A DNA stretch of 26,826 nt from Candidatus Colwellbacteria bacterium RIFCSPLOWO2_01_FULL_48_10 (GTDB lineage Bacteria > Patescibacteriota > Minisyncoccia > UBA6257 > Colwellbacteraceae): positions 11,145 through 37,970 of the forward strand of contig MHIY01000012.1 in NCBI GenBank assembly GCA_001817755.1, given 5' to 3'. How positions within the stretch are numbered: the stretch's first letter is position 1; every line of letters starts with the position of its first letter. Shown here one piece after another: positions 12,299-12,938 of the stretch. The position numbers and the translations under genes were made by a program. Below the pieces are notes generated by a model. It saw only the letters and a list, made by a program, of their open reading frames with translations, did no database searches and was not told where the DNA came from.

Positions 12299-12938
12299 TA
12301 GGCGAAGCAAGAGCTTCGCGCTTAACAACCTAAACGGTACCGTAATCTCCGAAATGAAGCCTAAAAGGATATTCGCTCGGAAAGGATGGGGTGCAAACCG
12401 GATTAGATACCCGGGTAGTCCTGTTCTCGCCCTCACGAGGGCCAAGCCGAGTGGCAAAGCAAAATCCTCATGTTCTCGCTTCAATAGCTGGTTACCCCGC
12501 TCCACCTCGCGGAAAAGGAAACCAAGCCGAATGGAGCGAGGATCAGGCACAAGCAAACCTGCCCAGTGACGTTGTACGCGCCGAATTGAAGAATCTTACT
12601 AGGCGTTCGCTCGTTAAACGGCGGGAGGAGTCTCCCCAGGCGGGTGTGTAAACGCCGCGGCCGGGGAGTTCTTCTGAAATCCAAGACCGCAAGGTCTTGG
12701 TTGGGAGAGGAGCCGATTCAAACCCGGCCGGTACCACTTGTTCCTTCTTTACCTAATGGGGCAAAGTCTGATGAGGATCTTTCAGACCACCACACCAACA
12801 ACATCCATAATCCTCATGGTGACATAGCCGGGCTTTCACCTGGCGCCGGTTCGATTCCGGTAGCCCCAAATCTGCTCCGACCAGTTTGTCGGAACCCGCG
12901 GCTGATGCGCGCACTTGCGCCCTCAGCCGCATTTATTT
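12299..12938 (+). ncRNA. Large structured ncRNA candidate with rRNA-like modules and a tRNA-like 3' domain; class unassigned
   Basis: Many stems (12302-12319, 12429-12442, 12498-12538, 12659-12729, 12681-12700 with a GCAA loop), 16S h24-like 12388-12421, 23S H68/H69-like 12558-12636, T-arm 12845-12861; bounded by a promoter and a terminator. Ends are approximate. Confidence 0.65.

Follow-up and report, generated by a model that had tools for sequence, protein, structure and literature searches.

Locus and bracketing signals

The window, by which we mean the whole stretch of 26,826 nucleotides that was analysed, comes from the 0.75-Mb genome of a CPR-like (small-genome) groundwater bacterium. 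Two of its tRNA genes, tRNA-Leu(taa) (12141-12227, with a promoter-like site of its own at 12269-12242) and tRNA-Cys(gca) (13113-13185, downstream of rbfA and infB), lie on the minus strand, as do rbfA and infB themselves. Between the two tRNA genes, on the plus strand, is a proposed non-coding transcript of about 640 nt (12299-12940), which we call RNA A and which is convergent with tRNA-Cys, rbfA and infB. The first-pass annotation had described a unit of this length without a credible ORF, and this description stands: gene callers placed no gene within 12299-12938 in the eight public assemblies, and the longest frames of RNA A have no Pfam match.

The unit was also said to have its own promoter and terminator, and signals of both kinds do occur on the same strand, as sequence signals only. 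The sigma-70-like promoter TTGACA-18-TATCCT (12263-12292, plus strand) is a consensus match only, at 10 of 12 positions, and would put the start near 12299; six promoter-like sites were found in 1.6 kb, compared with 1.2 expected. At the other edge a G+C-rich hairpin (12898-12930, p=1.00) followed by ATTTATTTTT makes up an intrinsic-terminator-like element (12898-12940), whose T-run is 3' of the stem on the plus strand only. A bulge in its stem caused a simple terminator scan to miss this hairpin.

The spacer that holds the unit (1117 nt) is 100% identical across eight assemblies from different samples, and DNA contigs aligned from the read data contain no variants within RNA A. An assembly chimera with rRNA is ruled out, since the eight assemblies do not differ at a single base and synteny holds in the flanks. 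No target-site, att or other direct repeats flank RNA A. There is no integrase, transposase or terminal repeat at the locus, and the genome has neither a second copy of RNA A nor any other duplicated segment.

Predicted fold

The dense base-pairing noted at first sight is confirmed as a strong predicted fold, with a minimum free energy (MFE) of -251.8 kcal/mol and a z-score of -6.2 relative to shuffled sequences (-4.8 for the minus strand). Among its confident elements are a 7-bp hairpin with a 4-nt loop at the 5' end (12302-12319, pair probability 0.99), an 8-bp hairpin with a GCAA tetraloop and no significant rRNA match (12681-12700, p=1.00) and a 6-bp hairpin just before the terminator (12876-12893, p=0.98). 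No helix of RNA A has covariation support, because no homologue was found.

If the functional strand were the minus strand, the spacer would be co-transcribed with tRNA-Cys and tRNA-Leu, freed by tRNA processing, and antisense to the rRNA segments described below. Both tRNAs and rbfA-infB are on that strand, as are the spacer ORFs of relatives, its z-score is also low, and the 3' third of RNA A folds slightly better on it. Against this, tRNA-Leu has its own promoter-like site, and the reading direction of the T-loop, of the terminator's T-run and of the promoter is that of the plus strand. The central 270 nt also fold clearly better on the plus strand (-112.4 versus -103.8 kcal/mol, with 57 versus 33 confident pairs in the central part). 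Our strand test consisted of folding and G-U counts, in which the full-length comparison of the strands is not decisive. Taken together, we consider a functional minus strand very improbable.

Pieces of ribosomal RNA

A 16S h24-like helix was among the first things noticed in the unit and it is real. At 12377-12426 (plus strand) RNA A carries a copy of SSU rRNA helix 24 (the 790 loop) together with the GAAAG junction that precedes it. The SSU covariance model matches 12388-12421 with 34 of 34 positions aligned and every pair standard (25-31 bits, E=1e-5), and nhmmer finds the copy with both a CPR profile (E=9.6e-10) and an archaeal profile (E=2.4e-9). It is identical to an archaeal 16S sequence (L174) at 35 of 36 bases, while same-family relatives differ from it by two compensatory pairs. 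Archaeal 16S is its best fit, with a source that is less certain than for the LSU copies. Within the copy lies the site to which 806R, a widely used primer, binds.

The second feature claimed, a 23S H68/H69-like module, is real too. The 5' strand of the H67/H68 base (12555-12571, plus strand) is identical at 17 of 17 positions to Thermoplasmata-class LSU (L121, L122), where CPR relatives read CCTGACCGATGCGAG. The 3' strand of the H68 base (12612-12625, plus strand) is identical to archaeal LSU at 14 of 14 positions and pairs with 12562-12571, with a covarying A-U pair kept. Spacing and pairing of the two strands are correct relative to archaeal LSU, and it is only against archaeal LSU that this part of the module becomes visible. 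Across 400 further genomes of the phylum the motif pair does not occur once. H69 itself is represented only by a stem in the right place: a GGGAG/CUCCC stem-loop with a 4-nt loop, then CAGG (12623-12640, plus strand), similar to H69 by positional analogy only and not in sequence. Its CAGG can close an H67-like helix with CCTG at 12558-12561. Forcing the resulting three-way junction to form raises the energy by 7.5 kcal/mol relative to the MFE structure, in which 12632-12637 pairs with 12663-12668 instead.

Nested between the H68-base strands is a third LSU piece, a copy of a domain-I hairpin with a 5-bp stem and a 19-nt loop (12574-12606, plus strand, p 0.99). The loop is identical at 17 of 19 positions to archaeal LSU (L118/L122) and at 14 of 19 to CPR relatives; the stem has changed in sequence and retained its pairing. 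To our knowledge the domain-I hairpin is not an interface element, and the earlier description of RNA A as a collection of ribosome-interface parts, which suits h24 and the H67/H68 base, is therefore too narrow. The order of the LSU pieces is not colinear with their source, running from archaeal LSU position about 1880 to 165-190 and then to 1940. The rRNA pieces are complete hairpins of 14-47 nt nested in helical register, and such a nested, non-colinear order is hard to obtain by capturing one contiguous piece of DNA.

A fourth likeness is marginal. A closed sub-domain with a 12-bp stem including three G-U pairs (12472-12543, plus strand, p=0.98) holds the 11-mer AATAGCTGGTT (12483-12493), which is present in 10 of 10 CPR and 10 of 14 archaeal LSU sequences. 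Similarity ends around it (3 mismatches in 18), and this likeness may be due to chance. Short matches outnumber those of shuffled sequences: twelve 12-mers are shared with archaeal LSU, against 1.5+-1.6 in shuffles, and 42 windows of 18 nt match archaeal rRNA with at most two mismatches, against 0.12.

By their sequence the LSU copies are of archaeal type, unlike this lineage's own 23S. LSU covariance models do not match RNA A, the 23S of relatives gives nothing by BLAST, k-mers or profile, and E. coli 23S has no BLAST seed in 12550-12630. We rejected a true rRNA gene or a decayed rRNA operon of the bacterium's own, as similarity is confined to 12377-12426 (SSU) and 12555-12625 (LSU). An own pseudogene is likewise rejected because the LSU part is non-colinear and archaeal in type, the 23S of relatives is unmatched and own-type sequences differ. 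The genome has its own 16S of normal type, the 3' half of which is on contig C16.

A tRNA-like domain

The tRNA-like 3' domain proposed in the first-pass annotation is present in a degenerate form. At 12757-12869 (plus strand) ARAGORN, at 80% of its threshold only, reports a class-II tRNA-like domain, which is unreported at default settings and by Rfam at the gathering threshold. Its acceptor has 6 bp and an A-A mismatch, with a G3-C70 pair read from the sequence. There is a weak 3-bp D stem, an enlarged anticodon loop with a 28-nt insert ("intron"), a long variable arm (12827-12844) and a standard T-arm (12845-12861). We rejected a true tRNA gene on account of the failed default thresholds, the insert, the short D stem and the mismatches. 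Over 22 nt the T-arm has the same sequence as the tRNA-Gly(GCC) of this genome, on contig C1, so RNA A combines a module of the bacterium's own type with modules of foreign type.

Comparison with known RNAs

In a scan of the whole window at the gathering threshold, no Rfam 15 family matches RNA A. At E<=10 with lax filters, 12200-13110 and 12370-12680 give only noise (Flavo-1, sR11, MIR1219, eiav_FSE) and the local SSU h24 match. The large RNAs that had to be excluded before RNA A could be called new, namely GOLLD, ROOL, OLE, tmRNA and RNase P RNA, are not matched, nor is any other class over its full length. We therefore rejected membership in ROOL, GOLLD, OLE and HEARO, whose covariance models do not match. 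The same holds for tmRNA, which ARAGORN does not find in the window, nor in 12700-12960 at 80% of its threshold, and for bacterial RNase P RNA, of which nothing is present at the locus. Both of these RNAs are elsewhere in the genome, in keeping with the earlier remark that the unit lacks their signatures: tmRNA on contig C20 (7993-8321, RF00023, 108 bits) and an RNase P-like RNA on contig C32 (4642-4966, the best RF00010 match of the genome, 46 bits). A group I or group II intron was rejected as well, as there is no Rfam intron match at E<=10, and the tRNAs to either side are uninterrupted and lie on the opposite strand.

The size and the tRNA neighbourhood are reminiscent of ROOL and GOLLD, the tRNA-like end is reminiscent of tmRNA, and the rRNA-like stretches are genuine. 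On such grounds RNA A could be taken for a divergent form of a known class (ROOL, GOLLD, OLE, HEARO, tmRNA, RNase P RNA, group I intron), for part of a true rRNA gene or for an assembly chimera with rRNA. The Rfam results, the tmRNA and RNase P-like RNA on other contigs, the agreement of the assemblies and the fact that rRNA similarity ends at helix bases make all of these extremely improbable.

What, then, does RNA A resemble? ROOL and GOLLD are large ornate RNAs of bacteria and phages, often encoded beside tRNA genes, that form RNA-only multimers (PMC12286853). RNA A is like them in being about 600 nt long, non-coding, densely structured by prediction and beside tRNA genes. It differs in having no covariance-model match and no family of homologues, and in being absent from phage DNA in the collections searched. 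As far as we know, recognisable rRNA copies and a tRNA-like domain are not features of ROOL or GOLLD.

Leaders of ribosomal protein mRNAs carry rRNA-mimicking sites to which a protein binds for autogenous control (PMC3616713). In them too a non-ribosomal RNA copies an rRNA element, and the rRNA-binding protein binds the copy. Those mimics are single, short, only loosely similar to rRNA and placed in the 5' leader of the operon that they regulate, whereas RNA A is stand-alone and terminated and has several near-exact copies from both subunits, the LSU ones of foreign type. We rejected such a leader, as the unit ends in a terminator and no ribosomal protein gene is downstream.

A tRNA-like domain is known from tmRNA, the bacterial Y RNA YrlA and the mascRNA at the 3' end of MALAT1. 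Shared with RNA A is an acceptor/T-arm minihelix joined to a larger non-tRNA body and potentially a substrate of tRNA enzymes. RNA A matches neither YrlA nor tmRNA in Rfam. Compared with tmRNA it lacks both a tag reading frame and a G3-U70 pair, and the genome has a normal tmRNA; its tRNA-like domain is self-contained at the 3' end of the RNA and does not join the 5' and 3' ends.

Some mitochondria, such as those of apicomplexans and Chlamydomonas, have fragmented and scrambled rRNA genes, the pieces of which jointly form a working ribosome. These genes and RNA A have in common that the pieces are short, out of linear order and reduced to the most conserved cores of rRNA. Here, on the other hand, a 16S of normal type exists and only a few modules are present, with LSU ones of another domain's type. 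Finally, 6S RNA and CsrB are decoys that sequester proteins; their analogy to RNA A would be functional only, and what is seen here is the mimicry itself.

Relatives of RNA A and a possible relic

The first-pass annotation looked to homologues of the unit for support. For the whole of RNA A none was found among relatives, species genomes, metagenomes, viruses and plasmids. BLAST against 60 relatives returned only 16S h24 and tRNA T-arm matches, and nhmmer on the syntenic spacers of 29 rbfA loci found no homologue. Exact patterns were tested in 300-400 genomes and one 22-mer in large collections. An h24 core with a 3' flank other than that of 16S gave seven matches in species genomes, all of them true 16S or artefacts, and phages and plasmids gave only 16S. 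Viral contigs had no relevant match. In metagenomes the combined h24 and H68 pattern had no match, and of 29 matches to an isolated h24 pattern one (L144) is truly isolated. The tRNA-anchored elements of about 130 nt elsewhere in the window have no relation to RNA A. Sequence nearly identical to RNA A turns up in just five runs, from groundwater and soil, and RNA A was found in a single species-level population. Even for RbfA the nearest among 5.8 billion proteins is 63% identical, and the contig that carries it ends at tRNA-Cys.

The order rbfA-tRNA-Cys-tRNA-Leu is conserved across the order, with a spacer of 1-200 nt in most relatives. At the 29 loci the tRNA pair is conserved and the spacer contents are unrelated; some hold HNH, GIY-YIG and other ORFs on the tRNA strand. 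RNA A as a pseudogene of these ORFs was rejected, as tblastn finds no trace of them.

Such a place, a hotspot for homing endonucleases, could have gathered pieces of archaeal rRNA-derived DNA or cDNA into a patchwork without function, captured either by break repair in an often-visited spacer or when reverse transcription of abundant RNAs switched templates. Structure and G+C content would come from the rRNA and tRNA sources, and promoter and terminator would be chance matches or leftovers. Like captured foreign DNA or rRNA pseudogene fragments, RNA A has foreign-type sequence, sits at an insertion hotspot and is found in one lineage. The same samples also contain archaeal-type 16S contigs that overlap the h24 stretch. 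The genome also has a second orphan locus (RNA B, contig C25), with a 146-nt archaeal-type SSU h34-h40 module; RNA A and RNA B have no sequence relationship, and two unrelated loci with foreign rRNA pieces in one genome suggest a process, not a design.

Other observations speak against a relic. Ordinary capture yields contiguous fragments, whereas the modules here have boundaries at helix ends, one hairpin is nested within a helix, and the unit is framed exactly by start and stop signals on one strand, without flanking target-site or att repeats. Roughly three quarters of the unit has no match and is nevertheless strongly structured by prediction. In four runs no other contig covers 12440-13056 at >=80% likeness, so this part was not recently copied from longer stretches of rRNA there. 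Very small genomes, moreover, usually shed junk fast. A relic seems to us quite possible, though well short of an even chance.

We consider it unlikely that RNA A is instead the ncRNA of a mobile or selfish element, so far unrecognised and directed at sites flanked by tRNAs, or what is left of such an element, with a lifestyle like that of ROOL and GOLLD near phage tRNA genes and with its protein genes absent. The hotspot between two tRNA genes, the size and ornate predicted fold and the sporadic occurrence would suit such an element. The single genomic copy does not, and neither do the absence from the viral contigs, phages and plasmids searched, the restriction of near-identical sequence to five runs, and the lack of integrase, transposase and terminal repeats.

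A possible function of RNA A

The reading that we prefer, tentatively and at a little below an even chance, is that RNA A is a lineage-specific structured RNA that mimics rRNA and tRNA and acts as a protein decoy. It would be an independently transcribed, lineage-restricted RNA gene, assembled by module shuffling that set conserved rRNA hairpins in an unrelated, strongly paired scaffold, followed by the tRNA-like 3' domain and then the terminator. The displayed hairpins would mimic rRNA and so bind and hold the protein or proteins that normally recognise those elements. A ribosome-targeting toxin, a modifying enzyme, and an assembly or initiation factor are candidate targets. The tRNA-like domain might be a handle for processing or stability (RNase P, RNase Z or CCA-adding enzyme) or a second mimic. 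We infer transcription, fold, protein binding and decoy role alike from the sequence.

Several observations favour an RNA gene: signals at both edges of one strand (a promoter-like site 5', a strong hairpin with a T-run 3'), the T-loop and rRNA copies in sense on that same strand, the low z-score with a central part that folds better on the plus strand, the copying of whole hairpins instead of arbitrary fragments, the excess of 18-nt windows that match archaeal rRNA, and the mix of own and foreign modules. To these can be added that a genome of only 0.75 Mb keeps RNA A unchanged in eight assemblies and has, in RNA B, another locus with the same theme. The RNA-gene reading is weakened by the lack of a homologue and by a run listing with no RNA run in it, two points on which the first-pass annotation had let refutation depend, by the location of the site at an insertion hotspot with homing-endonuclease genes in relatives, and by the rRNA-like fold, which is 13 kcal/mol above the MFE. 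Nor does a role within a bacterial cell explain the archaeal type of the copies.

A further suggestion is more speculative. Some Patescibacteria have been reported to live on archaea (PMC9600506, PMC10936435, PMC12281837). If this bacterium does, RNA A and RNA B might display the host's rRNA hairpins as cross-domain mimics and bind ribosomal proteins, assembly or initiation factors, or RNA-surveillance enzymes of the host. Such binding could occur inside the host after transfer of the RNA, or involve host-derived proteins taken up by the parasite. We regard this idea as improbable.

Implications

Judged by sequence, RNA A resembles nothing on record: the whole RNA has no known family and no homologue in the collections searched. 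We know of no earlier free-standing bacterial RNA that is made of recombined near-exact rRNA hairpins from both subunits and a tRNA mimic. The 806R primer site in the h24 copy means that the locus has a bearing on 16S-based screens. If RNA A is a relic, it would show directly that homing-endonuclease hotspots are places where sequence derived from archaeal rRNA gets into CPR genomes, with a bearing on the uptake of DNA or RNA by these organisms. If it is functional, it would be the first such bacterial RNA that we know of, with LSU copies of another domain's type, and module shuffling of ribosomal parts would be an added route to new structured RNAs. It would then also offer a handle on which proteins read these conserved rRNA hairpins, and on how the tiny, symbiotic bacteria of the CPR act on their hosts.

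A bounded non-coding unit between two tRNA genes

RNA A, a candidate non-coding transcript, lies in the window (contig C12, 11145-37970) between the genes for tRNA-Leu(taa) (12141-12227, - strand) and tRNA-Cys(gca) (13113-13185, - strand). The source genome (746 kb, 34 contigs, 92% complete) carries a bacterial gene set with tmRNA, RbfA and bacterial IF-2, and by its size and relatives it is probably that of a CPR/Patescibacteria organism. Beyond tRNA-Cys are rbfA and infB; beyond tRNA-Leu are TsaD, a class I aminoacyl-tRNA synthetase, PrsW, Hsp20 and a 113-aa protein of unknown kind. 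Elsewhere in the window, a full-length LOOT RNA (RF03000; 81.5 bits versus a gathering score of 46.4) occupies 243-362 (+), just upstream of an ORF at 402-752.

The first-pass annotation had seen in RNA A a unit with its own promoter and terminator and no credible ORF. This observation is confirmed and extended here. A promoter-like site, TTGACA-18-TATCCT (12263-12292, +), and a 33-nt, G+C-rich terminator-like hairpin (12898-12930, +), after which the + strand alone reads ATTTATTTTT, enclose 640 nt with a minimum free energy (MFE) of -251.8 kcal/mol (z -6.2). In 8 public assemblies the gene callers leave this interior empty, and none of its longest frames has a Pfam match. Between the terminator and tRNA-Cys there are a perfect tandem duplication, CGCTATTAAACGC (12991-13016, +), and an 11-bp palindromic hairpin (13058-13081) flanked by T and A runs.

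Could RNA A be an assembly chimera with rRNA? This is excluded, because the 1117-nt tRNA-to-gene spacer is 100% identical across 8 assemblies from different samples and the flanks are syntenic with those of relatives. Near-identical sequence is confined to a few metagenome runs, from groundwater and soil. Logan contigs break at 12392, where one of them (L102) starts with a different base, a pattern consistent with a de Bruijn branch towards a real 16S that has 31 nt or more in common with the h24 copy.

The locus matches none of the described RNA classes. An Rfam 15 scan of the region returned no family at even E=10 except a local SSU match and noise. As had been supposed, RNA A is neither tmRNA nor RNase P RNA: the tmRNA of the genome is encoded on C20 (108 bits), and C32 carries an RNase P-like RNA.

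Pieces of rRNA and tRNA in RNA A

Bridge B2b of the ribosome is where h24 (the 790 loop) comes together with H67-H69; the helix numbers and E. coli coordinates that we use for the rRNA copies follow ribosome structure. The h24-like helix proposed in the first-pass annotation is a real copy: 12388-12421 aligns to positions 763-796 of the SSU covariance model with all pairs standard (25-31 bits, E=1e-5), and profile searches widen the match to 12380-12433. RNA A reads AAACCGG...CCCGGG versus AAAAAGG...CCCTTG in same-family relatives, which amounts to two compensatory pairs, and is identical to an archaeal 16S (L174) at 35 of 36 positions. Judged by sequence, an archaeal or a bacterial source for this copy is ambiguous, since one relative in the same order has the RNA A variant and the 5' half of the organism's own 16S is absent from the assembly.

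The sole other isolated h24-like hairpin in the large collections searched is at 2558-2583 of metagenome contig Ga0209519_10008711 (L144), in an rRNA operon spacer ordered 23S 3' end, tRNA-Met, tRNA-Pro, h24 copy and 5S-like sequence (the 5S read by eye). A 16S h24 sequence, GCAAACAGGATTAGATACCCTGGTAGTCCA, is also one spacer of a CRISPR-looking repeat-spacer array in a Conchiformibius MAG (JASBYJ010000001.1; L106:339-369), between two identical repeats of ~36 nt each.

The proposed H68/H69-like module stands in part. Neither bacterial nor archaeal LSU covariance models find a match in RNA A, and BLAST, k-mers and an nhmmer profile find nothing in common with the 23S of ten relatives, which read differently at the H67/H68 base (CCTGACCGATGCGAG ... 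CTCGTCAATGTCAGCGG). The motifs that RNA A has at this base are present in 14 archaeal LSU genes, a Thermoplasmata-class sample of archaea: 12555-12571 is identical at 17/17 positions and 12612-12625 at 14/14. The two strands, 41 nt apart versus 35 in archaeal LSU, pair with each other and retain an A-U pair that covaries among archaea. RNA A is the top match of an archaeal LSU profile in the source genome (E=0.0011). It has 12 12-mers in common with archaeal LSU (1.5+-1.6 when shuffled; none of 300 shuffles reaches 12), and 42 of its 18-mer windows are within two mismatches of archaeal rRNA, versus 0.12 when shuffled. A scan of 400 other genomes from across the phylum found the motif pair in none, nor does the pair give a BLAST seed in E. 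coli. H69 is another matter. A GGGAG/CUCCC stem-loop follows the H68 base at the H69 position, and CAGG is able to close an H67-like helix; this stem would be a counterpart of H69 by positional analogy only.

Between the H68-base strands is a further copy, new here: a hairpin of a 5-bp stem and a 19-nt loop (12574-12606, +) that copies a conserved domain-I hairpin near 165-190 of archaeal LSU genes. Its loop is identical at 17/19 positions to two archaeal LSU sequences (L118, L122) and at 14/19 to CPR relatives; in the stem the sequence is changed and the pairing kept. The LSU pieces are clearly of foreign, archaeal type. An 11-mer, AATAGCTGGTT (12483-12493), is present in most LSU genes compared, the likeness stops there, and it is at best a marginal candidate for an rRNA copy. 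A predicted fold in which all rRNA-like helices form lies 13 kcal/mol (5%) higher than the MFE; this is feasible and proves nothing.

The tRNA-like domain is also borne out (12757-12869, +), with ARAGORN reporting it only at 80% of threshold. The acceptor has 6 bp plus an A-A mismatch, the D arm is weak, the anticodon stem carries a much enlarged loop, the variable arm is long and the T-arm is standard. Over 22 nt the T-arm and variable-loop junction show no difference from tRNA-Gly(GCC) of the genome. The pseudoknot proposed earlier is possible, because the loop 12771-12778 is complementary to either copy of AUCCUCAU (12464-12471, 12810-12817).

A hotspot and a second locus

In nearly all of 29 relatives' loci the genes run rbfA - tRNA-Cys - tRNA-Leu, usually with 1-200 nt between the tRNAs. 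Some gaps hold, on the tRNA strand, an HNH endonuclease (L058; partial copy in L059), a GIY-YIG protein (L054) or unknown ORFs of 177 and 277 aa (L045, L071), which makes the spacer a hotspot for insertions throughout the order. No counterpart of RNA A was found in the 29 spacers or the other collections searched. This lack partly reflects a lack of sampled close relatives, since no RbfA among 5.8 billion proteins comes closer than 63% identity.

The putative RNA B is an orphan, gene-free stretch of ~700 nt (C25:10868-11566 = L074:1137-1835, - strand) between a Mur-ligase-like gene and yebC/ruvC. Its fold has a z of -3.6, and its 3' end carries a hairpin resembling a terminator. It contains a closed 146-nt copy of SSU h34-h40, scoring 115 bits with the archaeal covariance model versus 83 with the bacterial, and 97.9 bits versus 14.0 with archaeal and CPR profiles. 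The module is 76-83% identical to archaeal 16S, with which local alignment scores 75-79; the score is at most 30 with relatives' 16S and 22 with the organism's own true 16S. Its archaeal signature 24-mer occurs in 0 of 300 other genomes of the class. RNA A and RNA B have no sequence in common.

The 3' half of the true 16S begins at a contig edge (C16:1-475) and was missed by the covariance-model search of the genome and found by nhmmer. Further pieces at 618-664 and 1520-1562 are separate from it, which implies insertions near the 16S 3' end. The assembly has no 23S.

Relic or functional RNA?

Some process may deposit archaeal rRNA-derived sequence in this genome, RNA A being its relic. The hotspot, the single population from which RNA A is known, the foreign type of the copies and the recurrence of the theme at two unrelated loci all speak for this suggestion, which we regard as a real if rather doubtful possibility. 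What speaks for an RNA shaped by selection is that the copies are complete hairpins, that one is nested in helical register in another in non-colinear order, and that rRNA copies share an unrelated, strongly paired scaffold with a T-arm of the type found in the genome itself. Same-strand start and stop signals bracket the unit, and a very small genome keeps it unchanged. We tentatively lean towards selection, with considerable reserve.

Another suggestion is that RNA A mimics, across domains, the ribosome of an archaeal host. Parasitism on methanogenic archaea is reported for some Patescibacteria (PMC9600506, PMC10936435, PMC12281837), and the samples with RNA A also contain archaeal-type 16S contigs that overlap the h24 stretch. 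We consider this improbable.

If RNA A is indeed shaped by selection, mimicry would be the most economical role for it: RNA A would hold proteins that read the copied hairpins, and its tRNA-like end may be a handle for processing or stability.
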